Counted from the first letter of the stretch, positions 35,923-55,238 are shown. The stretch: 64,000 nucleotides of DNA from an uncultured Thermoanaerobaculia bacterium (GCA_964641415.1 CAZXMW010000001.1:227816-291815); one strand, 5' to 3'. The notes: generated from the sequence alone by a model not told the origin. Numbers and translations are program-made.

Positions 35923-36426
35923 TCAGTCGCCGAGCGATCTCAGGACGGCGACGTAGTCGGGTTCCTCGCCGATCTCCGGGACCAGCTGGGAGTGGACAAC
36001 CCGATTGTCCTCGTCGGTGACGACAACGGCGCGGGCGGTCAGGCCCTCGAGCGGCCCCTCGGCGAGCCCGATGCCCCAGTCGCGGCCGAAGTCGGGCGAC
36101 CGGAAGGTCGACAGCGCCTCCAGATTGTCAATGCCCTCGGTGGTGCAGAAGCGCTGCTGCGCGAAGGGCAGATCGCCGGAGATCACGAGCACCACCGCGT
36201 TGTCGAGCCCGGCCGCGGCCTCGTTGAAGCGGCGGGCCTGGGCGGCGCACACCGGGGTGTCGAGACTGGGCACGATGTTGATGATCTTGCGCTTGCCCGC
36301 ATAGTCGTCGAGGGTGGCCTCGGAGAGGTCGCCTCGGACGAGGCGGAAGCCCGGGACGGTGCTGCCGGATTCGGGGAGTTCGCCCCGGGTCGGGAACGGG
36401 TTGCCCTTGAGGGTGACGGTGGCCAT
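35923..36426 (-). CDS. tpx: Thiol peroxidase (atypical 2-Cys peroxiredoxin)
   Basis: 167 aa. VTLKGNP, IVPSLDTPVCAAQARRFN (peroxidatic Cys), ISGDLPFAQQRFC. Confidence 0.9.
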   Translation of the reverse strand: MATVTLKGNPFPTRGELPESGSTVPGFRLVRGDLSEATLDDYAGKRKIINIVPSLDTPVCAAQARRFNEAAAGLDNAVVLVISGDLPFAQQRFCTTEGIDNLEALSTFRSPDFGRDWGIGLAEGPLEGLTARAVVVTDEDNRVVHSQLVPEIGEEPDYVAVLRSLGD

Positions 36427-36565
36427 TGATCAACTCCTTTTCCTGCTCGATTCACTTCGTGACAACCAGCTTCCGGCGGCGAGGAATTCCTCCGTCCGAG
36501 ACCTCGGATCTTCGGTATCCTCGTGGCAGGTCTCGCCGATTGGACCGACTCCTGGGAGGTGCACC

Positions 36566-38278
36566 ATGTCCAACACCGAGCTCGCCCGCGACGCGTTACA
36601 GGAATGGCGAAGCGTCCGAGACCGTAACGCCTGGGAAGACGACCCCTTCTTCCGGAACTTGGTGGTGCGGTTGCGCGGCGACCAACTCGAGCACGGTCTC
36701 GAGGGCGACCTCAGGACCCTCGCCAACCGGCTCGACGCCGGCTTCGACGACCGGGTGGCGCGCTGCAACCGCGACGAGCATCTGCCGCGAGTTGAGCGTC
36801 ACGACGCCGACGGGCGGCCGGCCGAACGTGTCGTCTTCCACCCCGACCACCATGAGGTGGGCCGCGTGTTCTGGGCGAGCGGCGCCCTCGCCGCGCTCGG
36901 CGAGCCGGGGCACGAGGTCGACGCCGGAGCGCGGATCTACCTCCTCGACCAGCACGGCGAGGCCGGTCACGCGTGTCCCGTGGCCTGCACCGCCGGCGCG
37001 ATTCGACTGCTCCGCGGCGTCGGCACCGACGACCAGCGCCGGCGGTACCTGCCCGGTTTGCTCGACACCGACTACGACCGGCGGCTGCACGCGGCCCAGT
37101 TTGTCACCGAGGTTCAGGGTGGCTCCGACGTCGGACTCAATGAGGTCCGTGCGGTCCCCGACGACTCCGCTCCGGGCGGCTGGCGCCTGTACGGCGAGAA
37201 GTGGTTCTGCTCGGTCGCCGATGCCGGGCTCTTCGTGGTCAGCGCGCGGCCCGAGGGCGCACCCGATGGCACCCGCGGCCTCGCCCTGTTCCTGGTGCCG
37301 CGCGAGCTCGACGGCCGGCCGAACGGCTTCGCCCTGCGTCGGCTCAAGGTCAAGCTCGGCACCCGGTCCATGCCGACCGGGGAGATCGAGTTCGACGGCG
37401 CCGCCGCCGAGCCCATCGGCGTCGTCGGTGACGGCTTCCGCAACCTGGTTGGGATCGTTCTCGACACCTCGAGGTTCCACAACGCCGTGGCGGCGTGTGG
37501 CCTCATGCGGCGGGCTTTCACCGAAGCGCGCGCCTTCGCCCGGCGCCGAGTCGCGTTTCGCAACCCGATCATCGACTTCCCGTCGGTCCAGATCATCCTC
37601 GCCCGGATGAAGGTCCGGACGCGGGCTGCTCTGGCGACGACCTTCCGACTGCTCGACCAGACCGACCGCGTCGACACCGGGATCGGTGGCGACGATCTGC
37701 GGGCTGCGCGTCGGATCGGGGTCATGGTCAACAAGTACTGGACCGCGATCCAGTCGACCCGGGCGGCTCGCGACGGCATCGAGATCCTCGGCGGCAACGG
37801 CACCATCGAGGACTTCTCGATCATGCCGCGGCTCTACCGCGACGCCATCGTCATCGAAAGTTGGGAGGGCACCCACAACACCCTGTGCGCCCAGGTGCTG
37901 CGCGACTTCAAGGTGCGCCGTCTCGATCGACCGTGGCTCGAGCAGCTCGCCTCCGAGGTCGAGGCTCTGAAGATCGATGGACGCCAGGATCTGTCATCGA
38001 CCGCCGACGAGCTTTTGGACGATGCTCGGCAGCGCATCGAGAGACTGGTCGAGGCGGACGACGTCACGGCCGCGGCCTGGATCCGGGATCTGGTCGATCG
38101 CATGGCGGTGCTCACCGACTGGGTGGCCCTCGCGACCCAGGCGGTGTGGGAGAGCGAGCACGACCCCACGAGTGACACCGACGACGCCCTCGAGCTGTAT
38201 CGACGGCTCGAGATCGACCGGACGGACCACATGGGCGATCCAACAACATTCGACCTCGAGGCTCGGCTCGCGAGGTAG
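36566..38278 (+). CDS. AidB-like acyl-CoA dehydrogenase family protein
   Basis: GGGAGG RBS and ATG 36566. CPVACTAGA, TEVQGGSDVG, GEKWFCS, LKVKLGTRSMPTGEIEFDG, and ILGGNGTIEDFSIMPRLYRDA resemble AidB/ACAD blocks. Confidence 0.8.
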   Translation: MSNTELARDALQEWRSVRDRNAWEDDPFFRNLVVRLRGDQLEHGLEGDLRTLANRLDAGFDDRVARCNRDEHLPRVERHDADGRPAERVVFHPDHHEVGRVFWASGALAALGEPGHEVDAGARIYLLDQHGEAGHACPVACTAGAIRLLRGVGTDDQRRRYLPGLLDTDYDRRLHAAQFVTEVQGGSDVGLNEVRAVPDDSAPGGWRLYGEKWFCSVADAGLFVVSARPEGAPDGTRGLALFLVPRELDGRPNGFALRRLKVKLGTRSMPTGEIEFDGAAAEPIGVVGDGFRNLVGIVLDTSRFHNAVAACGLMRRAFTEARAFARRRVAFRNPIIDFPSVQIILARMKVRTRAALATTFRLLDQTDRVDTGIGGDDLRAARRIGVMVNKYWTAIQSTRAARDGIEILGGNGTIEDFSIMPRLYRDAIVIESWEGTHNTLCAQVLRDFKVRRLDRPWLEQLASEVEALKIDGRQDLSSTADELLDDARQRIERLVEADDVTAAAWIRDLVDRMAVLTDWVALATQAVWESEHDPTSDTDDALELYRRLEIDRTDHMGDPTTFDLEARLAR

Positions 38279-38318
38279 GCCGGTCCGCCCTGAAGCCTGC
38301 CGCGGATCTGCGGCTGTG

Positions 38319-39254
38319 CTACCAGCCGAGCCAGCGGCAGACGCGGGTCCACACCTTCTTGATGTCGTCCGCGGCTTCTCCGCCGACATCGACTACCGCA
38401 CGTGCCTGAAGTTGGGCCTGGGTGACCGCACGGTCATACCGGACGCGGCCGACCAGCGCGGCGCCGCGGTCGCGGGCCCGCACCTCGATGGCGTCGGCGC
38501 CTTCCGGGTTGAGGTCCCACCGGTTGACGCAGACCGCGGTGCGAGCGTCGAAGTGATCGGCAAGCTCGAGCACCCGCTCCATGTCGTGGACCCCGGACAC
38601 CGTCGGCTCGGTGACCACCAGGACCCCGGAGGAGCCGGTGATCGAAGCGATGACCGGGCAGCCGATACCGGGCGGTCCGTCGATCAGGATTCCTCGGCTG
38701 TCGGACGCGGCGGCGACGCTTCGCGCCTGCTGGCGCACGGTGGACACGAGCTTGCCGGAGTTCTCGGCAGCGATATCGAGGCGGGCGTGCACCATGGCGC
38801 CGCGGCGGGTCGAGGACACGTACCACTCGCCGCACCGCCGGTCGATGAAATCGATGGCGCCGATCGGGCACAGACCGACGCACAACCCGCAGCCTTCGCA
38901 GGCCAGCGGGTCGATCTCGGCGGTGAAGCCGTCGAAGGTAACGGCGTCGTATCGGCAGACCGCGGCGCACAGTGAGCATCCGTCGCAGGCGTCGGCTCGA
39001 ACCACCGCCTCGTGACCGCTGCGAAACTCGTGCCTCTCGAGAATCTCGGGCTCGAGGACGAGGTGAAGGTCGGCTGCGTCGACGTCGCAGTCGGCAACCA
39101 CGAGCCCTGCGTCGAGGACCGCGAAGGATGCCACGAGGCTGGTCTTTCCGGTGCCACCCTTGCCGCTGATGACCACCAGCTCCGGCAGGTCCGGCGGCTG
39201 CGTTCGCGGCCCGACGGTGGGAAGCGAAACCAAAGAGCTGTCAGGCAGAGACAC
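38319..39254 (-). CDS. MinD-superfamily P-loop ATPase with inserted 2x[4Fe-4S] ferredoxin domain (COG1149-type), copy B
   Basis: VVISGKGGTGKTS Walker A, CDGCSLCAAVCRYDA and CEGCGLCVGLCPIGA, DGPPGIGCPV. The start is uncertain and overlaps the upstream gene by 14 nt. Confidence 0.8.
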   Translation of the reverse strand: MSLPDSSLVSLPTVGPRTQPPDLPELVVISGKGGTGKTSLVASFAVLDAGLVVADCDVDAADLHLVLEPEILERHEFRSGHEAVVRADACDGCSLCAAVCRYDAVTFDGFTAEIDPLACEGCGLCVGLCPIGAIDFIDRRCGEWYVSSTRRGAMVHARLDIAAENSGKLVSTVRQQARSVAAASDSRGILIDGPPGIGCPVIASITGSSGVLVVTEPTVSGVHDMERVLELADHFDARTAVCVNRWDLNPEGADAIEVRARDRGAALVGRVRYDRAVTQAQLQARAVVDVGGEAADDIKKVWTRVCRWLGW

Positions 39255-40113
39255 GTTGGTCTCCTTGGATGGCGGCTTGTGCCTCGGCGAGACCCAGCCG
39301 GACGGCGAGATCGACGAAGATCGGCCGGGTTTCGGGGATTGCGTCGATCATCGGCCGGCCCCGGGCGTACGCCTCGGCGATTCTCCGGTCGTCCGGGATC
39401 TCGGCCAGAATGTCGAGCCCCTCGGCCGCGCAATAGTCGTGGACCCGGTCGTCGCCGGCGTCGGCGCGATTGATGACGACGCCGCACCGCAGGCCGAGGG
39501 TCCGCACGGTCTCGACGGCGAGCCCGAGGTCGTGGAGACCGAAGGGCGTCGGCTCGGTGACGAGCACGACCATGTCGGCGCCTCGGACGGCGGCGATCAT
39601 GGAACACGATGTGCCGGGCGGTGCGTCGATGAGTACGGTCTCTGCACCGCGGCCCCGGACCCGAACCTGCCGGATCAGGGGCGGAACCAACGCCTCGCCG
39701 ACGTTGAGTCGGCCCTGGACCAGCCGCACTCCGCGAACCTCGCTGTCCTCGATGAAACCAATGGTGCGGCCGACCTCGGAGATCGCCCGTTCCGGGCAGA
39801 GCAAGGAGCACGCGCCGCAGCCGTGGCAGAGCTCGGGGAACACCGCGGTTCTCGGTCCAAGCACCGCAATGGCGTTGAATTGACAGGCGCGACTGCAATC
39901 CCCGCACAGGGAACATCGGTCCTCGTCGATCCTCGGCACGGGTATGCCGACCTCGGTTCGCGCATGGGGTTTGGCATCGAGGAAGAGGTGCGCGTTCGGT
40001 GCTTCGACATCGCAGTCGAGCAACCGCACGCCGTTGCCGAGAGTCAGCGCGAGATTGACGGCAACCGTGGTTTTGCCGGTGCCTCCCTTGCCCGATGCGA
40101 TGGCGATGATCAT
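39241..40113 (-). CDS. MinD-superfamily P-loop ATPase with inserted 2x[4Fe-4S] ferredoxin domain (COG1149-type), copy A
   Basis: MIIAIASGKGGTGKTTVAVNLA, CSLCGDCSRACQFNA, CHGCGACSLLCPERA, DAPPGTSCSM. The ATG shares its A with the upstream TGA (TGATG). Confidence 0.85.
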   Translation of the reverse strand: MIIAIASGKGGTGKTTVAVNLALTLGNGVRLLDCDVEAPNAHLFLDAKPHARTEVGIPVPRIDEDRCSLCGDCSRACQFNAIAVLGPRTAVFPELCHGCGACSLLCPERAISEVGRTIGFIEDSEVRGVRLVQGRLNVGEALVPPLIRQVRVRGRGAETVLIDAPPGTSCSMIAAVRGADMVVLVTEPTPFGLHDLGLAVETVRTLGLRCGVVINRADAGDDRVHDYCAAEGLDILAEIPDDRRIAEAYARGRPMIDAIPETRPIFVDLAVRLGLAEAQAAIQGDQRVSA

Positions 40114-40472
40114 CACCAGTGTCCGCCGACATCGGGTCCGTCGGCACGGTTCAGAGCGCCCGACTTGAGCTGCTCGACAGCATCCGACACCGTGCCTGAC
40201 GCGCCGGTGTAGACCTCGATTCCGGCTGCGCGCAGACTGCGGAAGGCCTTCGGTCCGCAGTGGCCGGTGACCAGGCACTGAGCGCCGAGACGCGACACCG
40301 TTTCTGCGGCCTGGATGCCGGCGCCCTGCGCGGCGGCGACGCCGGCGGCGTTATCCTCGACCCGGGTCTCACCGGTCTCGGTGTCGACCATGACGAATAC
40401 CGCGGCGCGTCCGAACCTCGGATCGACCGCAGCGTCCACGCTGCTTCCCGTTGATGTCACGACGACCTTCAT
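40113..40472 (-). CDS. NifX/NifB-C-terminal-like (dinitrogenase FeMo-cofactor biosynthesis fold, COG1433) protein, copy 1
   Basis: 119 aa. MKVVVTS...DPRFGRAAVFVMVD...GAGIQAAETV...GAQCLVTGHCGPKAF..L..AGIEVY pattern. GGAGG RBS. Confidence 0.8.
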   Translation of the reverse strand: MKVVVTSTGSSVDAAVDPRFGRAAVFVMVDTETGETRVEDNAAGVAAAQGAGIQAAETVSRLGAQCLVTGHCGPKAFRSLRAAGIEVYTGASGTVSDAVEQLKSGALNRADGPDVGGHW

Positions 40473-40652
40473 TGAGTTCCTCCAGTCAACCGAATGAGCG
40501 AAGATGAGCGGATCTGCTGGATGAAATGCGCCTCGATCATGCCCCGTCGGTGGTTGCGAAAAACGGACGCATCGCTTTCAGGATATCGAATATTTTCGCG
40601 CCTGTCCGGGGTCCGGGAAATCGACGCAGATCACCAGCGAGAATCGCTCATC

Positions 40653-40970
40653 TCAAGAGTTTGTATCTTCGGACTCCAGAGCCTCGAGACGGGCTGTGAT
40701 GCGGTGCCGTTCGTCGTCGAGTTCGGTGGCCCGCTGCTCGAGCCACCGGCGCTCCGAGCCGACGTCGAAGCCGGATTCATCGGTCAACCACCCGGGTTGT
40801 CCGGTGGCCCAGAAACGATGACGCCAGCCGTTCCCGCCGCGACCGAAGCCGATCCCCGGTTGGCGGTATCCTCTGCCGCCACCCGACCACCCCGCTCTGC
40901 GGCACGGTCCGCATCCCCATCCGGTCATGGATCCCATTCCCATCGGTCCGGTTCCGTCTCCGCCTGGCAT
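40653..40970 (-). CDS. DUF5320 family protein
   Basis: N-terminus MPGGDGTGPMGMGSMTGWGCGPC and a C-terminal coiled-coil-like LEQRATELDDERHRITARLEALE. The start is 1 nt after the upstream stop. Confidence 0.75.
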   Translation of the reverse strand: MPGGDGTGPMGMGSMTGWGCGPCRRAGWSGGGRGYRQPGIGFGRGGNGWRHRFWATGQPGWLTDESGFDVGSERRWLEQRATELDDERHRITARLEALESEDTNS

Positions 40971-40971
40971 G

Positions 40972-41316
40972 TCAGCCCTCCTTTTTTTCGCGTCGTTTCA
41001 TGATTTCCTGATGATGCGGCGAGCCCTCGCGAATCAGTGCCGCGCCGCACTCGGGGCAGCGCTCGTCGAGACAGGGCACGCCGGGCCTGTGAGGATAGTT
41101 GCTGCCGCACTTGGGACAGAGACAGGCGCCCCCGGCGCCCATTCCACCTCCGCGTCCGCCGCCCTGGCCGGCGCCCCGACCCTGACCGGATCCGCCGCCC
41201 TGGCCGGCGCCCCGGCCCTGACCGGATCCGCGGCCCTGACCGGATCCGCTGCCCTGACCGGATCCGCGGCCCCCGCCGCCCGATCTCGGTGCGCTCATTC
41301 GTGTCGAGTCATTCAT
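40972..41316 (-). CDS. Gly-rich (GSGQGR)n protein with C-terminal 4-Cys zinc ribbon
   Basis: GGGAGGG RBS and ATG 41316. GGGGRGSGQGSGSGQGRGSGQGRGAGQGGGSGQGRGAGQGGGRGGG, then CLCPKCG...CPECG. The track N-terminus (to 41607) is discounted. Confidence 0.6.
   Translation of the reverse strand: MNDSTRMSAPRSGGGGRGSGQGSGSGQGRGSGQGRGAGQGGGSGQGRGAGQGGGRGGGMGAGGACLCPKCGSNYPHRPGVPCLDERCPECGAALIREGSPHHQEIMKRREKKEG
41161..41267 (-). repeat. Tandem coding repeats (2 x 36 nt, then 18-nt units) inside the Gly-rich gene
   Basis: GGCCCTGACCGGATCCGC at 41214 and 41232, with a near-copy at 41250. The 36-nt unit gccctggccggcgccccg(a/g)ccctgaccggatccgc occurs twice from 41161. Confidence 0.8.
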
Positions 41317-41351
41317 GTCGATTCCCTCCCTGGACGCGCAAACGCCCGGTG

Positions 41352-41762
41352 TCAGCGTTGATGATGTCCGCAACCGCCGCTGTCTCCGGCATCTTTGGAG
41401 TGGTGGTCGCAGTCGTGGAAACCGTGGTCGTGGCACAGCTCGCCGCTGGTGGTGAGGGTGCCGTCGAGGTAGCACCGCACCAGCGTCTCCGGGTCGTCGC
41501 CGACGGCGCCGGTGACCACGTCGATGCCGTACGCCGTGAGCATCTGTGCCGCTCGGGGGCCCATGCCGCCGGCGAGTACCGCCTCGACGCCCTGTTGGCG
41601 AAGCCACGCCGGGAAGATCCCCCGACCGTGCTCGGGCGGTGGCGTGAGCCGGGGCCCGGCGACGTCCTTGAGCTCGAAATCCACGGTGTACATGGCAAAG
41701 GTGTCCGCCCCGCCGAAGTGAGGGCTGAACTTACCGTCTCGTATCGGGACTGCGATGATCAT
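41352..41762 (-). CDS. NifX/NifB-C-terminal-like (COG1433) protein, copy 2, with Cys/His-rich C-terminal tail
   Basis: MIIAVPIRDGKFSPHFGGADTFAMY...GVEAVLAGGMGPRAAQML..YGIDVV. Tail CHDHGFHDCDHHSKDAGDSGGCGHHQR. The start shares its A with the DUF134 stop (TGATG). Confidence 0.75.
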   Translation of the reverse strand: MIIAVPIRDGKFSPHFGGADTFAMYTVDFELKDVAGPRLTPPPEHGRGIFPAWLRQQGVEAVLAGGMGPRAAQMLTAYGIDVVTGAVGDDPETLVRCYLDGTLTTSGELCHDHGFHDCDHHSKDAGDSGGCGHHQR

Positions 41763-42148
41763 CAGTTTCCTTTCCTTTGTCCCCGGTGTCGGCATCGACA
41801 TCTCCGGCCGCGGCGACCGTCGCCGTCGTGAACCGGGCAGGGCAGCGGACGCTGCTCGCCTGGCACGACCGGTCCGTCGCCGATCACGAGGAGCCGTTCT
41901 TCGATCAATGATCGGGCGACGATCGATCGCGCCCGGGCCAGAATTCGAGAAAAAGTCGGACGTGAGACGCCCATGCGCTCGGCGGCTGCCTCCTGGTAGA
42001 GCCCCTCGAGATCAGCCAACCGAAGCGCCTCGAGCTCGTCCACCCTGAGGGTCTCGACCTCGAGCTCCATCGATGGCCGTCCGACGGGCTTGAAGCCTCG
42101 TCCTGGGCCGACGCAGCCGACTCGTCTGAGCTTTTCCGGTCGTCCCAC
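41762..42148 (-). CDS. DUF134 (UPF0251) predicted HTH DNA-binding protein
   Basis: GGAGG-cgct-GTG start at 42148 gives (M)GRPEKLRRVGCVGPGRGFKP..., matching the canonical MPRPRKCRRV...FKP N-terminus. The helix-turn-helix region is VDELEALRLADLEGLYQEAAAERMGVSRPTFSRIL. Confidence 0.75.
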   Translation of the reverse strand: MGRPEKLRRVGCVGPGRGFKPVGRPSMELEVETLRVDELEALRLADLEGLYQEAAAERMGVSRPTFSRILARARSIVARSLIEERLLVIGDGPVVPGEQRPLPCPVHDGDGRRGRRCRCRHRGQRKGN

Positions 42149-42164
42149 AGCGCCTCCGATTACG

Positions 42165-42193
42165 AACATATGCTCAAAATCGACACGTGTCAA
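42165..42193 (-). promoter_or_regulatory. Near-consensus sigma70-type promoter (TTGACA-17-TATGTT) overlapped by the 10-bp palindrome GACACGTGTC
   Basis: The minus strand reads cccTTGACAcgtgtcgattttgagcaTATGTTcgtaatcGGAGGcgctGTG. The -35 is at 42193-42188, the -10 at 42170-42165, and the perfect palindrome at 42182-42191. Confidence 0.5.
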
Positions 42194-42351
42194 GGGTCGA
42201 GTCACGCGCGTCTCGGGCTGGAATGGGCGCGTTTCCGGCGGACGGGCCATTTCTGCAGTTGTGCGCTGTCTGAAACTCGGCTACACGTTGTCGCAACTGC
42301 GGAAGTGGCAGTCGCCGAGCCCAGGCGCGGTGGATCGGGGCGCGAGCCGGG

Positions 42352-44514
42352 CTACCGGGAGATCGTCACGATCCCGACGTACCCGTCCACGGTGAGCCGG
42401 TCGCCGTTGGCGATCTGGGCGGTGACGTCGGGCACGCCGGTGACGCAGGGCAGGCCGTACTCGCGGGCAATGATCGCCCCGTGGACGAGCATTCCGCCGC
42501 GCCGCTCGACAACCGCCGCGGCGAGCGGCACGACGAAGGTCATATTGGGGTCGATCGCGTCGCACACCAGCACTTCGCCGGCTTCGAGCTCGAACAGATC
42601 GTCGACGCTTTCGACCAGCCGCGCGCGTCCGGTGGCGACCCCCGGGCCGGCAGGCTGGCCGACCAGCTGGCGCGGTTGGGCGCGGACGCCGGGCTCGGTG
42701 ACCAGAGGCTGCGCCGCCGGCTGCGGTTCGACGATGAGATTGGGGTGGCGCAGGGCCAGAATCACGCGTTCGGAGTCGATGTTTGCCGTTTTGGGCTCTG
42801 CCGGAAGCTGAATCCGGTCCCGCCCTTCGTCGACGGCAGCGAGCACGAGCGCCTCGAGCCGGGCGAGGTGGAGGTTGTCGTCGTCTCGCAGCCGATAGCT
42901 GGCACGACCGACGTCGAGAATTTCGGCCGCCAGCTGCCTTCGTTCGGCGGCCACCGCTTCGAGGAATGACTCGGCCAGCCCCTCAGTGTCGACCACGCGC
43001 AGCGTCCTGGGTCGGGTGGGTGCGTCGGCTGCTGCGAGCAGCCATCGCACGAAACGGTCGCGATCGGCAAAGCAGGCCCGGTCGGCGAAGACCGCGGCGC
43101 CGTGCTCGGCGAGAAAACCCTCGAGAATCGCCTCGAACCCGGCATCGGAACCACCGCCCTCGGCGAGGCTCGAACGCAGGGTCGGGTCGTCGCGGAGCGT
43201 CGCGACGAGGTCGGCGAGCGCCCGGTTGCGGCGCACGCCGAGCATGGGTGTTCCGGTGAGCAGGTCCATGAACTCGTAGGGGTCGTCCGGACGCACGACT
43301 TCGTTGTAGAACTGCCCGAACAGCCGAATGCCGTGCGCCAGGGGAATGAAGTCGCGCCAGTAGGTCTCGACCCAGCGGTCGTGGGCGGCCTGACGACGCT
43401 CGATCTCGGCGGCGAGCGCCTCGTGATCGAGGCCCTCGAGGTCGACCCGGTCGAGCTCCTCGGCCTGGCGATCCATGGCCGGAAGCATCTCGGTCTCGAC
43501 GGTGGTTCGGAGCTTCCGCAGGCTGTCGAGGCTGCGGGTCAGGCTGAGGTACCACGCGCGCTGATCGCCCTCGGAGCCGGCGGCTGTGGTCACCGGCCGG
43601 GACTGGAGCACGACCAGACGGTCGCGGTCGAAGGTCCACTCGACGTCCTGAGGGGATTTGACCAGCTCGCCCGCCGCACGAATCGCGGACACGACCCGGC
43701 CGAGCGCCGCGTCGTCCAGCGGTGGTGTGTCAATCGGGACCGCCTCGACCCGCGAGCCTCCTTCGGACATCACCATCCGTTGGCGCTTCGACGGTGGGCG
43801 GTGGTCAGTCAGCCGACCGTTCGAACGGTCGATCTGCCAGACGTCGGGCTCGACGGCACCGTCGACCAGCCCCTGGTTGAGGCCGTGCACCGCCTCGACG
43901 ACCATGAGGTCACGATCGGTGGGGTGGATGCCGAACCCGACGCCCGAGACGCGGCCGTTGATCAGGGGCTGGATGACCACCGCCATGGCGCTGCGCTCGG
44001 GGTCGATGCCGAGCTCGCGACGGTAGAGCAGCGCCCGATCGGTCCACAACGACGCCCAAACCGAGCGGACGGCTCCCACCACCTCTGCCGGACCGCGAAC
44101 ACCCACCGTCGAATCGTGCAGACCGGCGAAGGAAGCGCCCTCGGCGTCCTCGCCCGGCGCCGACGACCGGACCGCCAACACGGCGCTGCCGAAAAGCCCG
44201 CCGACCCGATCCTCGATTTCGGACGCCACCGACTCCGGCACCGGGGCGCGCAGGAAACGGTTGCGGATCCTGAGCGCCGTGTCCCAGATCTCCTCCCAGC
44301 GCATGTCGTCGAAGCTCTTGCGCCCGAGCTCCTGAAGGATCACCGGCCGCAGCGCGGCCGCATCGACGAAAACCTGGTAGGCAGCGGTGGTCAGGCACAG
44401 GGTCGCCGGGACCTCGAAGCCGCCGCGGGCGAGCACGGCGAGGGCCGCCGCCTTGCCGCCGACAACGGCAGGATCGGTGGCCTCGGGGGCGTCGAGACCG
44501 ACGACGAATCCCAT
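42352..44514 (-). CDS. PEP-utilising phosphotransferase with PpsA-type ATP-grasp N-domain and C-terminal swivel His domain (rifampicin-phosphotransferase-like architecture)
   Basis: VGGKAAALAVL, VRSSAPGEDAEGASFAGLHDS, DVEWTF...LVVLQSRPVT (PPDK_N). C-terminus GVATGRARLV...LVCDAIDPNMTFVVPLAAAVVERRGGMLVHGAIIAREYGLPCV. No PEP/pyruvate TIM-barrel domain. Confidence 0.8.
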   Translation of the reverse strand: MGFVVGLDAPEATDPAVVGGKAAALAVLARGGFEVPATLCLTTAAYQVFVDAAALRPVILQELGRKSFDDMRWEEIWDTALRIRNRFLRAPVPESVASEIEDRVGGLFGSAVLAVRSSAPGEDAEGASFAGLHDSTVGVRGPAEVVGAVRSVWASLWTDRALLYRRELGIDPERSAMAVVIQPLINGRVSGVGFGIHPTDRDLMVVEAVHGLNQGLVDGAVEPDVWQIDRSNGRLTDHRPPSKRQRMVMSEGGSRVEAVPIDTPPLDDAALGRVVSAIRAAGELVKSPQDVEWTFDRDRLVVLQSRPVTTAAGSEGDQRAWYLSLTRSLDSLRKLRTTVETEMLPAMDRQAEELDRVDLEGLDHEALAAEIERRQAAHDRWVETYWRDFIPLAHGIRLFGQFYNEVVRPDDPYEFMDLLTGTPMLGVRRNRALADLVATLRDDPTLRSSLAEGGGSDAGFEAILEGFLAEHGAAVFADRACFADRDRFVRWLLAAADAPTRPRTLRVVDTEGLAESFLEAVAAERRQLAAEILDVGRASYRLRDDDNLHLARLEALVLAAVDEGRDRIQLPAEPKTANIDSERVILALRHPNLIVEPQPAAQPLVTEPGVRAQPRQLVGQPAGPGVATGRARLVESVDDLFELEAGEVLVCDAIDPNMTFVVPLAAAVVERRGGMLVHGAIIAREYGLPCVTGVPDVTAQIANGDRLTVDGYVGIVTISR

Positions 44515-44963
44515 CAGTCGAAGTGGAGCTCGATGACGTGCTGGAAGCGGCTCACCACCATGTAGACCGACACCCGCAATCGGAGCAGCGCGGAGCTCGG
44601 CGACCGGACGAAGGTCTCCAGGTGGGGGTGCTTGGCGAGGAACAGGGTTTCGAAAGCCGAACGGTCGCCCGGGTCGATTTCCTCGACGACGCCGACCGCG
44701 GTTGCCGCCGACGCCTCGGTGAAGTCGGCAGGCCGGTTGGTTCGGTTGTCGACGAGCATCGAGGCGCGGGCGTCGCCGGCCAGGTTGTCGTGCTTGCGGG
44801 TCTGGCGACCGGTGACGAAAAGCAAAGATCGAAGGTCGTCGGTGGCGGCGAAGCCGACCAGGCTGGTGTAGGGCTCGCCGTCGTGGTGGGTGCCGAGGAC
44901 CGCCAATAACTGGCTCGACAGCAGCTCTCGCAGGATCTCGAGGTGGCTCGGGTCGTGATTCAT
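44514..44963 (-). CDS. Pyridoxamine 5'-phosphate oxidase family (FMN-binding split barrel) protein
   Basis: 149 aa. LLAVLGTHHDGEPYTSLVGFA...LLFVTGRQTRKHDNL pattern. The stop abuts or overlaps the downstream kinase start. Confidence 0.7.
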   Translation of the reverse strand: MNHDPSHLEILRELLSSQLLAVLGTHHDGEPYTSLVGFAATDDLRSLLFVTGRQTRKHDNLAGDARASMLVDNRTNRPADFTEASAATAVGVVEEIDPGDRSAFETLFLAKHPHLETFVRSPSSALLRLRVSVYMVVSRFQHVIELHFD

Positions 44964-45021
44964 CGGAGGGTCCCGCCTTTCACCGCGAAGTATACGGCTT
45001 CGCGAGCGGGGGGGGCGCCGG

Positions 45022-46035
45022 TCAGCGCCCGTCGCTCAGAGGGGCCGGGTGGATCGCCGCGCGGCCGAGTGCCATCATCGCCATGTGGGGCACCGTCAGC
45101 ACCGACAGACCGATGAAGACGATCGACGCGAGCACGGCGTCGAGCTGCACCCCGGCAATGAACACCGCGGCTCCGGCGGCGACAGCGGCAACCACCGTCA
45201 GGAGGGTCAGCGGCAGCGCCTCGCGAACGAAGCGTCGGATTCCGTCGCCGAGCCGCCCGGGCGCCAGGTCGCCTGCGAGCTCGAGGGCGTGGCGCATGGA
45301 GTGCCAGCCGCAGAAGTAGGTCAGAAAGGCGATCAGCGGCGGGGCGACCACATGGAGGGTAGCGATCGCGGCGAGCTCGGCCCCTGCAGCCAGGTGCCCG
45401 CTGGACGTCAGGCGAGCCAGACGAAGCGCGGCCACGGGGAGCACGACCGCCGCGGCGCAGCCCGCCAGAGCGCCGACGACGCCGTGGTCGAGGGTGATCC
45501 GCGCCGGCATCAGCCAGCTGAAGATGACCGTGACCTCGGCGGCGTGCAGCCAGGTCGGCAGCACGATGGGCAGCGCGCCGACCGCGAAGCGCTCGACGGT
45601 GTTCCAAAGCGGTGTCGACCGTTCGATCCACAGCGGATCGTCCCACCCGAAGTGAAGCGCCGACAGCGCGAGAAAGGTGACCAGCGCAATCACCGGAACG
45701 GCGATCCAGAGCGCTCCCATGAAGCCCGCCAGCGAAAGGTAGCCGACGACGAACGGGAGCCACCAGCGGCTGCCGAACACCGGCCGGAAGATCTGGCGCG
45801 CCACCAGATGATCGAGGGCGCCGTGAGGCAGGCCGACCACCGCGACCGCCGCGGCGAGCAGGGCGAGCTGAGCGAAGGAACCGGGCGAACCTGCAGTCAC
45901 CGCATATGCGATCACGGCAGCGGTGATGCCGAGCATCAGACTCCGGTGCTCGCTGAGGGGCGCGACCAGCGATTGCGCCCGGTGGGCGTCCAAACCAGGC
46001 TGCCGCCTCGGAAGGATGGCGAGAGTGGTCGTCAT
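45022..46035 (-). CDS. blh: Brp/Blh-family beta-carotene 15,15'-dioxygenase (retinal synthase)
   Basis: Polytopic protein with conserved His blocks GLPHGALDH, FCGWHSMRHALE and LTVPHMAMM. ATG 46035 lies 49 nt downstream of the rhodopsin stop. Confidence 0.8.
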   Translation of the reverse strand: MTTTLAILPRRQPGLDAHRAQSLVAPLSEHRSLMLGITAAVIAYAVTAGSPGSFAQLALLAAAVAVVGLPHGALDHLVARQIFRPVFGSRWWLPFVVGYLSLAGFMGALWIAVPVIALVTFLALSALHFGWDDPLWIERSTPLWNTVERFAVGALPIVLPTWLHAAEVTVIFSWLMPARITLDHGVVGALAGCAAAVVLPVAALRLARLTSSGHLAAGAELAAIATLHVVAPPLIAFLTYFCGWHSMRHALELAGDLAPGRLGDGIRRFVREALPLTLLTVVAAVAAGAAVFIAGVQLDAVLASIVFIGLSVLTVPHMAMMALGRAAIHPAPLSDGR

Positions 46036-46084
46036 CACAGAAGAAAACGACCCGGGCCGGCACGCGGCCGGCCCGGGACACACG

Positions 46085-46861
46085 TCACGCAGAGGCGCCG
46101 GCGGCGGACAGCGTGAAACCCTCGGCATCCGACTTGGCCCGAGCCAGGCGGTAGATGAAGATGCCGTACAGAGCCTTGGCGGTCAGGTCCGCAATGCTGT
46201 AGCCGACCTGGACGCCGACCTCGGCGGCGGCGCCGGAAAGGCCCAGCATGGGCAGGATGAAGGCGATGGGATAGACCCACCACGACACGACGATGAGATT
46301 TCGAGCGCCGGCGAGCCGTGACCGGATCTCGCCGTTCTCGTCGGCGACGGACCTGGTCAGCTGCCCGAACAGGACGCTCAGGATGTAGAGGAACGGAATC
46401 ATGGACAGCGCCCAGAAGACCCACCGCACCCCGTTCTGATCGGAGATCTCGCCCGGATAGCCGAGGGCGAGCATCGCGATGGCGGCGAAGCTGAGCTTGG
46501 TAATCAGGTTCGACGACTGAGCGCGGCTGAGACCGAGCACGGCGACCAGCTCGATGAGCAGCAGCGGCACGGTGATGAGCCAGTCGGCATAGCGGTAGGC
46601 CTCGTTGAAGGGGACGCCGGACGGGACGTAGTTGCCGCCCTGAAGGACGAAGGCGGCGGCCCAGCTTTCGAACATGCGGAAGTAATGGTAGCCGGCGATG
46701 AACACGACGACTCCGGAAATGATGAGCGCGGGCCGGTATTGCGGCGCGACCTGCGAGCGCGCGGCGAAGAAGAAGATGCCGGAGCCGAACATGGTCGCCA
46801 GCGTCAACGACAGCATGTTGTAGACCAGCTGGAACTGACCCGGGGTGAGTGTGAACTCCAT
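46085..46861 (-). CDS. Microbial rhodopsin, proteorhodopsin/xanthorhodopsin-like, DTE motif (outward H+ pump type)
   Basis: GGAGG RBS and ATG 46861, 258 aa. Helix B AGYHYFRMFESW. Helix C RYADWLITVPLLLIE (D, T, E at the BR 85/89/96 equivalents, Leu at the PR-105 position). Helix G YSIADLTAKALYG (Asp + Schiff-base Lys). Confidence 0.9.
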   Translation of the reverse strand: MEFTLTPGQFQLVYNMLSLTLATMFGSGIFFFAARSQVAPQYRPALIISGVVVFIAGYHYFRMFESWAAAFVLQGGNYVPSGVPFNEAYRYADWLITVPLLLIELVAVLGLSRAQSSNLITKLSFAAIAMLALGYPGEISDQNGVRWVFWALSMIPFLYILSVLFGQLTRSVADENGEIRSRLAGARNLIVVSWWVYPIAFILPMLGLSGAAAEVGVQVGYSIADLTAKALYGIFIYRLARAKSDAEGFTLSAAGASA

Positions 46862-47006
46862 CGTGAACCTCCAAGATTGATTTCGTTGTGTGAAAAGCAA
46901 TCTTATTTCGCAGAATTCCAGAAAAAATCGACGTGATCTTGACAAAATTGAGAATTTTATCTCAAGCTTTGAGCGGTTCATCTGCCTCAGGACCGTGCTC
47001 CTCTGG
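46862..47006 (-). promoter_or_regulatory. Conspicuously AT-rich rhodopsin leader with two inverted repeats
   Basis: TTGAGA-atttta-TCTCAA (46948-46965) and AAGATTG-18 nt-CAATCTT (46873-46904), the latter abutting the GGAGG RBS. I could not pin down a convincing -35/-10 pair. Confidence 0.35.
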
Positions 47007-47390
47007 TCACGGTCGGTGGTCGGCCGGGCCCCGTCGCAGGCGAATCGGACCCCGAGCCGAGGACGGATCGACCGCCCGGGAGCCCTGGACGATCTCGAGC
47101 CGGCCCGCCGCCGCGAGCCGCCGCGCCGCCCGGCGGGACGCCTCCATGAGCTCGCGCCACCGGTCCGGTGCGACCGCCCTCGCCGCCTCCGAGGGGCAGA
47201 TGGAGGCGCCGTCGGCCCGCGCCTCCAGAAGGTCGAGGATGGCGTCCTCGAGGCGTCGGTCGAGCGGCCTCAGCCGTCTGTTGCGGCAGACGCTCGAGCA
47301 GTAGCGCACCTCGTCCCAGCGGCGCCGCCATCGACGGCGCCACTCGAAGCGGCGACCGCAGGACGCGCAGATCTTCGACTCTCGGCTCAT
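47007..47390 (-). CDS. DUF2256 (Zn-ribbon) + DUF3253 fusion protein
   Basis: MSRESKICASCGRRFEWRRRWRRRWDEVRYCSSVCRNRR (DUF2256 pattern), then ...ICPSEAARAV...WRELM...RRAARRLAAAGRLEI. ATG 47390 forms an ATGA overlap with the photolyase-fusion stop. Confidence 0.7.
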   Translation of the reverse strand: MSRESKICASCGRRFEWRRRWRRRWDEVRYCSSVCRNRRLRPLDRRLEDAILDLLEARADGASICPSEAARAVAPDRWRELMEASRRAARRLAAAGRLEIVQGSRAVDPSSARGPIRLRRGPADHRP

Positions 47391-49822
47391 TCGGAACCGT
47401 CGAACAGCGATGGCTGCTCGGGGTCCGGGTGCAGCGAGAGCAGCCGCCCGGCCGCCGCGCAACCCGACAGGAAGGCGCCTTCGACCCTGGGCCCACCGCA
47501 CCAGTCGCCGCAGGCGGCGATCGCGAGATCCCGGTCGAACAGACACGGCTCCGGCAGGGGTTCGAAGGGCTGGGCGAAGCGCCAGCGATGGCCGAACAGG
47601 TCATCGGGCGGGGGCAGACGGCGGTTGACCGCGTCGTGGAAGGCGCCGACGAGCCGACCTGCGGCGAGCTCGCTGTCGAGCTCGAGGTGCTCCTCGGACC
47701 ACTCGGGCGAGGCGTGCAGGACCCAGGTCTCGCCGGTCGGACGACCGGGCTTGCTGCCGTTGCGGGCGACCCACCTCAGCGGAGAGTCGTGGACGAAGGC
47801 GCCGTCGAAGTTCAGCCCGAGCGGCTCCGCGAAGTGCACCATCGCCGCCCAGCAGGGCGCCATCTCGACGGCCTCCGCTCGCCCGCTGAACTCGGGCGCG
47901 AAACCGCCGAGCAGTGCGGCGGTCTGGGGCGCCGGGGCAGACACCACGATCGCGTCGAAACCACCGAGCTCGCCGTCCGTGGTGTGCAGGGACCAGCGGC
48001 TGCCGTCGCGATCGAGACCGGCCACGCGAATGCCGTAGGCGACATCGAGGTCCGTCGCCAGGTGCCGGCAGACGGCGTTCATGCCGGGAACACCGACGAA
48101 GCGCTCTGTCGTGTCGTCCTTGATCTCGATCGCCCCATGGTCGACCACCGCGATGGTGCCGGACCAGGGAGCGACGAGGCCGTCGTCGCGCCACGACCGG
48201 ACGAAGCGCCCGAAGCGCCGATCGCGCACCGTGAAGTACTGTGCTCCGTGGTCGAAGCGCAGCTCGCCGGCGCGCCGGGTCGACATTCGTCCGCCCGGCC
48301 CCCGGGACTTGTCGAAGACGCGGACCCGGTGGCCGTGATCGGCGAGGGATCGAGCGCACGCCAACCCCGACATGCCGGCCCCGATGATTGCGACCTCGAG
48401 CGGCCGCTCGGTGGCCGGTGGCGTCACCCGGGCGGCGTAGCGGTCGAGGTCGAGGCGGCGAGCGTGCGAGGCTGTGGAGCGCGAACGCACCCTGCCGAGG
48501 ACGGGTTGTTCCGGATCGAAGGGCCGGTCGAAGAGTCCGAGGCACCAGAGTAGGCCGCCGTAGGAATTGGGGTCGGATCCGTCGAGGGCGAAGCGGTGGT
48601 TGAGGTCGATCAGGGTGTCGAGGGCGTGGTGGGAATCGCGGGTCCAGCCGACGAGGGCTTTGCCCCAGGTCATCCGGACGTTGTTGTGAAGCTCGCCGTG
48701 GCGCACCAGCGAGGTCTGACAGAGATCCCACAGCCGGTCGCCGGTGCGGCCGCGGGACAGGGTCTCCCATGACCGGGGATCGCGCTCGTCGCCGGCGTGC
48801 CGCGTCAGGGTCTCCCGCGCCCAGACCGGCAGAACCTCGAGCGACTCGACGAGATCGTGACGATGAAAGCACAGGTTGTGCGCGAGCTCGCGCCAGACAA
48901 TGAGCTCGTCGAGGAACTTCTCGGCGCCCTTGCCGCCGACCTCGGCCGCCTCGCGGGCGATTCGCAGCGGAGACACGTGGCCGTGGTGGAGGTAGGCCGA
49001 CAGACGGCTGACGCCGTCGGCCGCCGCGTCGTTCCGCCGGGCGGCGTACGATCGAAGCCCGCGTTCGCGAAACGCCGACCAGCGGGCGTAGCCGGCGACG
49101 GATCCGCCCGGGGTGTGGGCGACCGGCCCGACGGTGTGGTCGACGGCGCAGCCCGCGACGAGATCGGAAATTGCTGTGTCCTCCAGGTCGGTGTCTTCGA
49201 ATCCGAGCGTCGAACGGTCAAAGGGCGGCGGCGAGCTCTCGACCGACGGCCACGGCGACCAGAGCCGACTGTCGAGCTCGTCGCGGATCGCCGACCGGAA
49301 CGCGAAGGCCCGGTCGTGGGGGCGCCCGACCAGCCGCATGGGGACGACGCACGCCGTGTCCAGCGCCCATACCGGGGTGGTGATCCGCTCGGCGACACCA
49401 GCGGTCCAACGGGAAAATGGCGGTGCCGGAAAGTCCTCGGTGACCACCAGCGCCGCGTCGGCGGCCAGCCCTGCCAGGGGCGTCGGTCGGCGGGGATCGG
49501 CGCCGAGTGAGAAGACGTGAACCAGACCCTGCTCGGCGAGCTCCGCGCGGACGTCGCGAGCGCCTTCGAGAATGAAGGTGTGGTGGCGGTCGTTATCGAA
49601 ACGGTGACCTCCGCCGAGCCCCTGGTAGACGATGAGAGGCAGCTCGAGCGTTGCGGCGGCGATGCGAGCGGCGTCGAGGGCGGGGTTCTCGTGACCGCGG
49701 ACCGCGTGGTGCATCCAGTAGAGCACGTGGCGCCCGGAGGTCGCGAACGACCGGTCGGCGACGATGCGCACCCGTTCTCGGACGGCCTCGGGGAGCCGGT
49801 CGAGAAGATTTTTCGGGGTCAT
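47387..49822 (-). CDS. Class II CPD photolyase fused to a renalase-like (COG3380-type) NAD/FAD-dependent oxidoreductase
   Basis: N-terminal part of about 470 aa: VLYWMHHAVRGHENPAL, LSAYLHHGHVSP, ELIVWRELAHN, LWDLCQTSLVRHGELHNNVRMTWGK, DGSDPNSYGGLLWCLG. C-terminal part of about 330 aa: VAIIGAGMSGLACARSL...FDKSRGPGGRMSTRR...ACGDWCGGPRVEGAFLSG. One uninterrupted frame. ATG 49822 forms an ATGA overlap with the nei stop. Confidence 0.8.
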   Translation of the reverse strand: MTPKNLLDRLPEAVRERVRIVADRSFATSGRHVLYWMHHAVRGHENPALDAARIAAATLELPLIVYQGLGGGHRFDNDRHHTFILEGARDVRAELAEQGLVHVFSLGADPRRPTPLAGLAADAALVVTEDFPAPPFSRWTAGVAERITTPVWALDTACVVPMRLVGRPHDRAFAFRSAIRDELDSRLWSPWPSVESSPPPFDRSTLGFEDTDLEDTAISDLVAGCAVDHTVGPVAHTPGGSVAGYARWSAFRERGLRSYAARRNDAAADGVSRLSAYLHHGHVSPLRIAREAAEVGGKGAEKFLDELIVWRELAHNLCFHRHDLVESLEVLPVWARETLTRHAGDERDPRSWETLSRGRTGDRLWDLCQTSLVRHGELHNNVRMTWGKALVGWTRDSHHALDTLIDLNHRFALDGSDPNSYGGLLWCLGLFDRPFDPEQPVLGRVRSRSTASHARRLDLDRYAARVTPPATERPLEVAIIGAGMSGLACARSLADHGHRVRVFDKSRGPGGRMSTRRAGELRFDHGAQYFTVRDRRFGRFVRSWRDDGLVAPWSGTIAVVDHGAIEIKDDTTERFVGVPGMNAVCRHLATDLDVAYGIRVAGLDRDGSRWSLHTTDGELGGFDAIVVSAPAPQTAALLGGFAPEFSGRAEAVEMAPCWAAMVHFAEPLGLNFDGAFVHDSPLRWVARNGSKPGRPTGETWVLHASPEWSEEHLELDSELAAGRLVGAFHDAVNRRLPPPDDLFGHRWRFAQPFEPLPEPCLFDRDLAIAACGDWCGGPRVEGAFLSGCAAAGRLLSLHPDPEQPSLFDGSE

Positions 49823-50652: not shown

Positions 50653-50710
50653 GTCGATCTCCATGTCGAGAAATGGCGGCGCGTGGTTTCGTATTCCGCG
50701 GGCCGGCGCG

Positions 50711-51551: not shown

Positions 51552-51770
51552 GCGCGGGTCAACGGGCTCGCACCGAGGATGCTTCCGCCACAGCAGGTGG
51601 AGCCGCGTGCAACAATCGCGATTCGGCCTTGATCGCGCCGAGCTCCAGCTCGGCGTTGATGGCGACGATGCCTGTCAGAACGCTCGCCTGGAGATGGGCG
51701 CTCCAAGGTGTTTCGGTCCTCACCGCCCTCTTCGTCGATTCTTGCAAGCGGCACGGTGTATAACCGTGGG

Positions 51771-53399: not shown

Positions 53400-53497
53400 T
53401 GTGCCTGCGACGGCCGGGAAAGAAAACCGGTAGGCCTCACGTTGCTGTGAGACAAAGCGAATTGCGATCAAACGAACCGACCATTTTGGAGGCGGAG

Positions 53498-55230: not shown

Positions 55231-55238
55231 GGTTCGCA

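Follow-up and report, generated by a model that had tools for sequence, protein, structure and literature searches.

Orange protein (ORP) clusters are known from sulfate-reducing bacteria, and their components have been purified for about two decades although their physiological role is still only proposed. In Desulfovibrio vulgaris Hildenborough, for whose ORP operons Fievet 2011 is cited in PMC6345978, PMC3897727 and PMC8359166, the proteins Orp3, Orp4 and Orp8 co-purify and their complex receives Fe-S clusters from MrpORP; the ORP proteins are described as "putatively involved in cell division" (PMC6345978, PMC4672049, PMC8359166). The Fe-S sensor OrpR activates the D. vulgaris orp operons when conditions are reducing (PMC6345978, PMC8359166, PMC4672049, PMC4641369). 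According to work cited in PMC6345978, ORP binds an anionic Mo-Cu-sulfide cluster non-covalently. In MrpORP, a [3Fe-4S] cluster is bound by the Di-Nase domain (PMC6345978). IssA of Pyrococcus furiosus, which combines a NifX-like domain with a cationic Gly/Arg/aromatic tail, stores thioferrate (PMC5524996). Here we describe a cluster of seven genes at 38319-42148 on the minus strand of a 64,000-nt stretch of DNA, hereafter the window, from an uncultured Thermoanaerobaculia bacterium (GCA_964641415.1 CAZXMW010000001.1:227816-291815). In order, the genes encode a DUF134 protein, a NifX-like protein (NifX1), a Gly/Arg-rich ribbon protein, a DUF5320 protein, a second NifX-like protein (NifX2) and two ATPases, A and B. 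A first-pass annotation of the window had presented them as a candidate uncharacterised system with no assigned function. Judged by gene content and gene order, the cluster is instead an extended, probably DUF134-regulated variant of the ORP cluster of sulfate-reducing bacteria, with split NifX and ribbon genes, in a Holophagae-like Acidobacteriota genome.

The best PDB match of NifX2 was 2WFB, the orange protein of D. gigas (now Megalodesulfovibrio), with an alignment over residues 2-114, that is, over the full length (E 1.2e-23); the [S2MoS2CuS2MoS2]3- cluster is that of 2WFB and of uncertain physiological relevance. Using the 2WFB sequence as a query, we reached the Desulfobacterota orp loci, namely that of Desulfovibrio sp. 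X2 (L086) and a second, Desulfobacterota-type locus (L087). In both, the genes of two Fe-S MinD-like ATPases follow the ORP gene, and the junctions overlap as they do in the window. According to BLASTP, NifX2 shared 47-53% identity with the ORPs of Desulfobacterota orp operons. ATPase A shared 47-50% identity with the first ATPase of the two loci and 35-38% with the second, and ATPase B shared 48-50% with the second and 29-31% with the first. The orthologues of ATPase B likewise have a short N-terminal extension and overlapping starts. The orp operons of D. vulgaris Hildenborough (Orp3/4/5/8/9) show the same order of ORP and two ATPases, overlapping junctions and one-to-one orthology (47-53% identity), and Desulfovibrio orp operons include a second NifX/Di-Nase-type protein and Gly/Arg-rich small proteins, as does the window. 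These comparisons indicate that NifX2, ATPase A and ATPase B are one-to-one orthologues of the Desulfovibrio ORP operon core, in the same gene order. The earlier statement that the cluster had no experimentally defined role is therefore wrong for these three genes. The literature on the ORP core comes close to documenting a function, although the physiological role given there is still "putative".

Both ATPases and their orthologues retain a deviant Walker A motif (SGKGGxGKT), which carries the signature lysine of dimer-forming MinD/NifH-class ATPases, together with DxD, eight ferredoxin-type Cys, DxPPGxxC, TEPT and a conserved Asn at the base-recognition position. Each ATPase had been annotated with two CxxCxxCxxxCP motifs. 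In both proteins this holds for the second motif only; in the first, CxxCxxCxxxC, the next residue is Q or R. Counted from the Walker B Asp, an invariant switch-II Cys follows at a distance of seven residues, as does Cys132 in NifH. The CXXC bridging-cluster motif of Mrp/NBP35/ApbC was not found after Walker B in the ATPases, in which a single invariant Cys, that of DxPPGxxC, occupies this region. The ApbC and MrpORP models matched only the N-terminal P-loop of the ATPases, and Fer4_NifH (PF00142; 23.0 bits, cut-off 25) covered only the N-terminal P-loop of ATPase A.

The four genes upstream of this core encode proteins rich in potential metal ligands or in Gly and Arg. The helix-turn-helix (HTH) domain of the DUF134 protein resembles sigma70 region 4 (Pfam) and is followed by a C-terminal Cys/His tail, CPVH-x9-CRCRH. 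The orthologues of this protein all start M-x-RPEK and retain CPxH...CxC. The tail is conserved as CPxH-x8-9-CxCxH in the Acidobacteriota clade and is replaced in other clades by a fused six-Cys ribbon or by another CxxC...CxxC ribbon; these variants point to a possible metal- or cluster-sensing module. No relatives of DUF134 or DUF5320 were found among solved structures. NifX1 matched positions 265-365 of the 365-position MrpORP model NF041136 (E 8e-26; 91 bits, cut-off 450), corresponding to the C-terminal Di-Nase domain of MrpORP/Orp9 (PMC6345978), and its best PDB matches were the TM1816-type proteins 1T3V and 1O13. The PPPEHGRGIFP sequence of NifX1 resembles the MrpORP proline motif TPPPHXPGXXP, and its C-terminal ...HDC-DH stretch resembles the conserved CDH of MrpORP. 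By contrast, the N-terminal CXHFGHCE of MrpORP corresponds to SPHFGGAD, without Cys, in NifX1. The C-terminal tail of NifX1, CHDHGFHDC...GGCGHH, is conserved as CH[DE]Hx[FY]HDC...GC in ~35 orthologues. NifX1 lacks the Mrp/NBP35 P-loop, and no such domain was found in the cluster; unlike the Desulfovibrio orp system, the cluster has no MrpORP with a P-loop domain.

In the third protein, previously described as a four-Cys zinc ribbon, the invariant Cys number six and are joined by a His that is nearly invariant (C65, C67, C70, H76, C82, C87 and C90). We detected 329 relatives, which carry no Pfam domain except for one DUF134 fusion. The family pattern, C-x-C-P-K-C-G...H...P-C...C-P-x-C-G, is preceded by a Gly/Arg repeat of variable length. 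A fold search with the ribbon domain returned generic rubredoxin/zinc-ribbon knuckles only, none of them significant (best E 0.4). The Cys ribbon is a conserved family without a Pfam model, newly recognised here. In AlphaFold predictions, residues 1-60 of the ribbon protein were of low confidence and residues 61-100 had predicted local distance difference test (pLDDT) values of 81-91; residues 1-50 of DUF5320 were likewise of low confidence, and a long C-terminal helix (residues 70-103) had values of 90-97. The N-terminal halves of both proteins are thus predicted to be disordered. That of DUF5320 (62 residues) contains 22 Gly, 7 Arg and 5 Trp, with an isoelectric point (pI) of 11.6 and a net charge of +6; that of the ribbon protein has a pI of 12.0 and a net charge of +6.

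The distribution of these genes was examined in a genome scan that used a narrow alignment of the ribbon and one genome per species, and which returned 80 loci. These came mainly from Acidobacteriota (Holophagae, Thermoanaerobaculia, Sulfomarinibacteraceae and Aminicenantes), Calditrichota, Caldisericota, Dictyoglomota, Desulfobacterota, Methylomirabilota and sulfur-oxidising Gammaproteobacteria. DUF134 was directly upstream of, or fused to, the ribbon in 45 of the 62 loci with sufficient left flank, and a NifX gene lay between the two in 33. The ATPase pair was present within the locus in 35 of the 56 loci with sufficient right flank. The full seven-gene order recurred in Holophagae, Thermoanaerobaculia, Sulfomarinibacteraceae, one Pirellulaceae metagenome-assembled genome (MAG) and one 'Deltaproteobacteria' MAG. 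The scan agrees with the first-pass annotation that these genes are recurrent neighbours, mostly in anaerobes; the relatives are mostly MAGs of lineages usually regarded as anaerobic or sediment-dwelling, as read from their taxon names. By this pattern of recurrence, DUF134-NifX1-ribbon-DUF5320 is a separately conserved module that lies beside the ORP core in many genomes.

Gene fusions tie the module to the core. DUF134-ribbon fusions occur in Aminicenantes, Caldisericota and others, and NifX-ribbon fusions occur in loci L088 and L089. In Trichloromonas acetexigens, the order is a sigma54-PAS activator, a 221-aa NifX-Gly-rich-ribbon fusion, DUF5320, ORP, ATPase, radical SAM and ATPase. A Desulfovibrionales MAG (L088) has the order CGGC, NifU_N, NifX-ribbon fusion, DUF5320 and DUF89. 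Upstream of ORP, Desulfovibrio sp. X2 (L086 6059-6900) encodes a weakly NifX-like protein of 168 aa, which ends in CPCRCRG and a Gly/Arg tail, and a 112-aa (GQGQGR)n protein. Since X2 has them too, Gly/Gln/Arg repeat proteins are apparently a feature of orp clusters in general that has gone unremarked. Given the fusions and the X2 locus, counterparts of all the cluster genes other than DUF134 can be found in sigma54/OrpR-type orp clusters, and, judged by this correspondence, DUF134 stands in for OrpR in the window-type cluster. The fusions also predict contacts of the ribbon with DUF134 and with NifX. All seven genes, including those for DUF134 and DUF5320, common domains of unknown function, are now tied to the ORP system. 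Elsewhere in related loci, the neighbours include NifU_N, radical SAM, CGGC, rhodanese fusions, a cysteine desulfurase-selenophosphate synthetase fusion and peroxiredoxins, which point to sulfur and Fe-S chemistry. The searchable literature yielded no description of the DUF134/ribbon/DUF5320 part, nor of the operator-like element described below.

The cluster also differs from its Desulfovibrio counterpart in layout and control: it is one co-oriented array, as opposed to two divergent operons in D. vulgaris, and it combines a DUF134 HTH protein with a sigma70-type promoter and a palindrome, whereas Desulfovibrio uses the sigma54 activator OrpR and IHF. The sole sigma70-like promoter match in 37800-42800 is at 42193-42165 (Table 1), where the region delimited in the first-pass annotation ends. 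Sigma54 control as in Desulfovibrio was rejected: there was no -24/-12 match at either intergenic region, the window-wide count of such matches was at chance level, and no sigma54 activator was found among the neighbouring genes in the window. The DUF134 upstream regions of 30 loci were unalignable save for the -35 hexamer, a block around GAGCATATGTTCGTAA, the ribosome-binding site and the start codon. The palindrome core GAGCATATGTTC occurs once in the window and was absent from shuffled sequences. When up to one mismatch was tolerated, almost every DUF134 locus had a single copy ~28 bp ahead of the start; such copies are present in roughly 40 loci of several phyla, and matches elsewhere in 1.05 Mb were all but absent. 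In low-GC phyla, the palindrome lies in the -35/-10 spacer and not over the -10, such that its sequence is kept while its position shifts.

In an unbiased test, metagenome contigs were scanned for the palindromic 16-mer ATGARCATATGYTCAT, and 80 loci were returned. The 16-mer lay within 300 nt upstream of a cluster-family gene in 38 of these loci, whose GC contents ranged from 0.34 to 0.67. The gene was DUF134 in 30 cases (one of which also had a NifX-type gene in range), DUF5320 in six, and NifX/ORP-type or ATPase only in two. These data identify a candidate operator at the DUF134 core promoter, conserved across phyla and newly reported here. As the palindrome overlaps the -10, binding would imply repression, and we infer that DUF134 autoregulates via this element. 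A phylum-spanning DNA element beside DUF134 provides a directly testable handle on the system.

What the sequence comparisons establish is the identity of the cluster, its synteny, the fusions and the conservation of the operator. On this basis we infer, with a probability of about 0.6, that the cluster encodes an ATP-dependent metal-sulfur cluster handling complex of the ORP type that is autoregulated by DUF134. The weight of this estimate lies almost wholly on the identity and the general class of function, and not on the individual steps that follow. The evidence is in keeping with the broad proposal of the first-pass annotation, a metallocluster system that is driven by ATP and controlled by DUF134. 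In the proposed scheme, a DUF134 dimer would bind the palindrome and repress its own operon. Either the Cys/His tail of DUF134 or its six-Cys ribbon partner would ligate a metal or an Fe-S cluster, thereby setting the affinity for DNA. A metal, Fe-S or redox signal would then release DUF134, and expression would follow redox or metal-sulfur status, as it does with OrpR in Desulfovibrio. ATPases A and B, each with two predicted [4Fe-4S] sites and the invariant switch-II cysteine, would pair, depending on nucleotide, into a heterodimer onto which ORP docks, on the model of the Orp3-Orp4-Orp8 complex. ORP and NifX1, both small, would carry a metal-sulfur species (Fe-S or Mo/W-S) that is already assembled and probably anionic, and which the cationic, disordered Gly/Arg(/Trp) halves of the ribbon protein and DUF5320 may hold electrostatically, as proposed for the IssA tail. 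Binding and hydrolysis of ATP would gate the transfer of this species to a client protein. If the system does handle metal-sulfur species, it would do so by a path separate from the standard Isc, Suf and Nif machineries.

The resemblance to IssA can be taken further. Its globular domain is of the same family (IPR003731/PF02579) as the NifX proteins in the window, and its tail is of like composition to the cationic, Gly-rich, partly Trp/Arg-rich disordered segments that are carried on separate proteins here. The NifX-Gly-rich-ribbon fusions of relatives recreate the IssA layout of domain plus tail. In a broader and speculative model, which we consider improbable as a whole, DUF134 would represent a widespread, hitherto unrecognised class of metal-sulfur/redox autoregulators that share one palindromic operator from Acidobacteriota to Caldisericota, and the ORP system would be a split IssA-like, ATP-gated device for metal-sulfide storage or delivery. 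In such a device, the Gly/Arg(/Trp)-rich proteins and NifX-fold carriers would sequester an anionic metal-sulfide polymer or cluster that the paired Fe-S ATPases load or unload; this would constitute an Fe-S (or Mo/W-S) path distinct from Isc, Suf and Nif. DUF5320 was rejected as a detached IssA tail by homology, the compositional analogy being retained.

The nitrogenase cofactor maturation set (NifH, NifX/NafY and NifB) shares with the cluster a dimeric Fe-S ATPase of the same superclass and NifX-fold carriers, and with relatives of the cluster a radical SAM partner. It differs in that a NifEN scaffold and nitrogenase are absent from the cluster and that the Fe-S sites of the ATPases are inserted ferredoxin domains and not a NifH-type bridging cluster. 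No nitrogenase family scored above its cut-off in the cluster proteins, and no nif genes were found among the scanned window genes or related loci, the PF02579 domain being all that is shared. The earlier statement that nitrogenase genes are absent was likewise borne out among the ~30 window proteins scanned against Pfam, a set smaller than the whole window.

Several points weigh against a DUF134-autoregulated, ORP-type handling complex. No client protein was found in the analysis. The 180-nt spacer between the two modules (Table 1) leaves room for two separate transcription units. The 16-mer was found upstream of ArsR/SmtB-family regulators in 11-12 of the 80 metagenome loci; the half-site is therefore not exclusive to DUF134, whose binding to the palindrome is deduced from co-location. 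The ribbon occurs alone, without Gly repeats, in sulfur-oxidising Gammaproteobacteria. In ORP, the Mo-Cu cluster may be non-physiological. The likeness to IssA is one of composition and not of demonstrated homology, and none of the 120 DUF5320 relatives listed, of 206 found, carries a NifX domain. In the searchable literature, we found no functional study of DUF134, DUF5320 or the ribbon protein, and the sole role published for the ORP complex is a proposed one in septum positioning or cell division (PMC6345978, PMC4672049).

In the latter role, MinD/ParA-class ATPases would place the septum or another structure and the clusters would act as redox sensors only. Beyond having been proposed for the orthologous complex, positioning is consistent with the localisation of MrpORP to the cell pole (PMC6345978, PMC4672049, PMC4641369). 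It is also consistent with the deviant Walker A motif, with archaeal MinD proteins as the nearest solved relatives of the ATPases by sequence, and with a C-terminal helix of hydrophobic periodicity in both. Yet the ATPases scored far under the cut-offs of the MinD models (TIGR01969, 50-76 bits, cut-off 202; TIGR01968, 39-44 bits, cut-off 213), MinD lacks the inserted ferredoxin domain, and no MinC/MinE-like partner was seen in loci with Pfam-annotated gene calls. All other conserved partners are of metal- or cluster-binding types (the NifX fold and the Cys ribbon, with NifU, radical SAM and CGGC neighbours), and we consider positioning unlikely. The same ATPase features could serve electron transfer. 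The heterodimer would then act in the manner of the Fe protein of nitrogenase or of the activators that serve benzoyl-CoA reductase-type enzymes, with the NifX-like proteins as adaptors; ATP hydrolysis would drive low-potential electrons out of its ferredoxin domains and onto a client, for instance the radical SAM enzyme of relatives. The eight invariant ferredoxin-type Cys per subunit in a dimer-forming fold, the placement of the switch-II Cys, as in NifH, and a radical SAM gene in or beside the cluster in several relatives all fit this alternative, which we nonetheless hold to be quite unlikely: neither a radical SAM gene nor any other evident client is present in the window, what has been published deals with the transfer of clusters and not of electrons, and the Gly/Arg-rich proteins are left without a role.

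Doubt may also attach to the unity of the cluster. The 180-nt spacer would be expected if a DUF134-NifX1-ribbon-DUF5320 operon and an ORP-ATPase operon were merely neighbours, with separate functions and no joint complex, and in many loci the four-gene module is not followed immediately by the trio, which in some cases lies on the opposite strand or is missing from the 16-kb locus. That the units are unrelated is, however, very unlikely in view of the recurrence of the seven-gene order in several lineages, the sigma54-type clusters in which a NifX-ribbon fusion and DUF5320 lie directly upstream of ORP on the same strand with short gaps, and the presence of the palindrome upstream of ORP/NifX-type and DUF5320 genes as well. 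A narrower objection concerns the regulator. The ArsR-family sites raise the prospect that the palindrome is bound by another protein, of the ArsR/SmtB type and encoded elsewhere, or is only a promoter under unusual constraint, with DUF134 not an autoregulator; in addition, orp locus L087, which spans 14 kb without a DUF134 gene, has a perfect palindrome of 18 bp, AATGAGCATATGCTCATT, 39 bp ahead of ORP. We give this little credence: the element accompanies the DUF134 start in 30 of the 80 unbiased matches and ~40 genome loci across the range of GC contents, no HTH_5/ArsR-family gene was present among the called genes of the Pfam-annotated DUF134 loci, and the palindrome is conserved while it moves between the -35/-10 spacer and the -10. 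A handling complex under DUF134 control thus remains our preferred reading.

Autoregulated metal sensors of the ArsR/SmtB type carry the same palindrome class, TGA[AG]CATATG[CT]TCA, at their own promoters; DUF134 differs from them in that its HTH is not HTH_5 and is like sigma70 region 4. The sequence ATGA[AG]CATATG[CT]TCAT was observed just upstream of HTH_5 genes in loci L095, L100, L105, L108, L132, L147, L152, L159, L163, L168 and L169. From these sequences, two unrelated HTH families appear to share one operator class. At L069 (~8500-8550), a longer inverted repeat, ATCAGGGC...TCCCTGAT, encloses the palindrome, GAGCATATGCTC, which there has a DUF134-ribbon fusion gene on one side and a NifX gene on the other, a placement that differs from the promoter-embedded copies at other loci.

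The open reading frames (ORFs) and translations agreed with the seven co-oriented genes and the coordinates first given for them (Table 1). A hidden Markov model search against Pfam, with scores judged against the curated cut-off of each family, recovered the assigned families; the Gly-rich ribbon has no Pfam family. When an independent gene caller was run on another assembly of this DNA (Logan SRR7048221), six of the seven genes had the same length and DUF134 was 26 residues shorter (102 vs 128 aa).

Table 1. Coordinates of the cluster, its promoter and the genes of the adjacent segment in the window
Feature	Coordinates	Strand	Description
DUF134 (UPF0251) HTH protein	41762-42148	-	128 aa; PF02001 63.1 bits, cut-off 27
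NifX-like 1 (NifX1)	41352-41762	-	136 aa, Di-Nase type; PF02579 60 bits
Gly/Arg-rich six-Cys ribbon protein	40972-41316	-	114 aa; no Pfam family
DUF5320 protein	40653-40970	-	105 aa; PF17253 61.3 bits, cut-off 27, full length
Spacer between modules	40473-40652	-	180 nt; possible internal boundary or processing site
NifX-like 2 (NifX2), ORP/Orp8 orthologue	40113-40472	-	119 aa; PF02579 81.5 bits
ATPase A	39241-40113	-	290 aa; Pfam CbiA/ParA + Fer4
ATPase B	38319-39254	-	311 aa; Pfam CbiA/ParA + Fer4; GTG start overlaps ATPase A by 14 nt
-35 hexamer TTGACA, DUF134 promoter	42188-42193	-	TTGAC invariant in 30 aligned orthologous upstream regions
-10 TATGTT, DUF134 promoter	42165-42170	-	TTGACA-17-TATGTT at 42193-42165
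Operator-like element TGAGCATATGTTCGTAA	42160-42176	-	core GAGCATATGTTC at 42164-42175, 10/12 palindrome overlapping the -10
Shine-Dalgarno GGAGG	42153-42157	-	4 nt before the DUF134 GTG start; kept in upstream alignment
PEP-utilising enzyme	42352-44514		within the ~8.3 kb segment
PNPOx-like gene	44514-44963		within the ~8.3 kb segment
Carotene 15,15'-dioxygenase	45022-46128		within the ~8.3 kb segment
Rhodopsin	46085-46981		within the ~8.3 kb segment
Photolyase/amine-oxidase fusion	47387-49915	-	within the ~8.3 kb segment

In gene order, the junctions are a 1-nt overlap, a 35-nt gap, a 1-nt gap, a 180-nt gap, a 1-nt overlap and a 14-nt overlap. The string reported as common to two junctions is a 13-mer, TGATGATCATCGC, and not 14 nt long; it gave 2 matches in the search (0.01 expected) and occurs nowhere else. 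It arises because the stop TGA overlaps the ATG-ATC-ATC of two proteins that both start MIIA, and a repeat element was ruled out on these grounds. The 180-nt spacer is unique in sequence within the window and across all loci and is not conserved, the homologous gap being ~40 nt in the Holophagae MAG contig L007. No promoter or terminator match was found in it. It is predicted to form a long imperfect hairpin that is weakly better than shuffles (z = -2.1). A structured RNA or riboswitch was ruled out given this marginal folding, the lack of conservation and the absence of any Rfam family at threshold anywhere in the window. An anti-phage defence system was also ruled out, as no PADLOC model matched any of the seven proteins.

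The closest relative is contig L007, which has the same seven genes with 58-91% protein identity (most 78-91%, DUF5320 lowest) and ~77% nucleotide identity. There the cluster runs directly into DNA homologous to window positions 50690-55574. The intervening ~8.3 kb of the window (~42350-50690) is absent at this position and is therefore an indel relative to L007; it holds the genes listed in Table 1 and looks like an inserted or lost light-sensing island. The proximity of the light genes, which had been called unexpected, is accordingly without functional meaning, and a functional link of the cluster to the rhodopsin and photolyase was rejected. The rhodopsin and the O2-dependent carotene dioxygenase are encoded 3-5 kb from the cluster, such that the host, an Acidobacteriota genome, differs in this respect from Desulfovibrio. 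A polyprenyl synthetase (54277-55230) and a lycopene cyclase (60408-61598) are encoded in the same window. These genes suggest that retinal biosynthesis is encoded nearby. An ORP cluster, described in the literature as anaerobe-specific, is thus found in a genome that would make retinal by an oxygen-dependent enzyme. The fusion ORF at 47387-49915 is unusual: its 842-aa product joins an N-terminal DNA-photolyase domain (PF00875) to a C-terminal flavin amine-oxidase/NAD_binding_8 region.

Just downstream of the cluster are genes for a thiol peroxidase (Redoxin/AhpC-TSA; 35923-36426, minus strand) and an AidB-like acyl-CoA dehydrogenase (36314-38278, plus strand). Peroxiredoxin genes also lie beside the module in L002, and the AidB-like gene is syntenic in L007. 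In eight gammaproteobacterial loci (L024, L026, L046, L051, L056, L070, L079 and L084), the ribbon occurs without DUF134, NifX or ATPases; in one of these, Rhabdochromatium (L079), it sits between a DsrE-like gene and DUF89. Genes for DUF89/ARMT1-like "damage-control phosphatases" recur, by the ribbon in Rhabdochromatium (L079 7881-9059) and by DUF5320 in the Desulfovibrionales MAG (L088 6369-7274). One of the 80 metagenome 16-mer sites, at L155, precedes a DUF89/ARMT1-like gene (810-1738), which lies 47 nt downstream of the palindrome. From these placements, the DUF89/ARMT1-like family may be a further member of the regulon.

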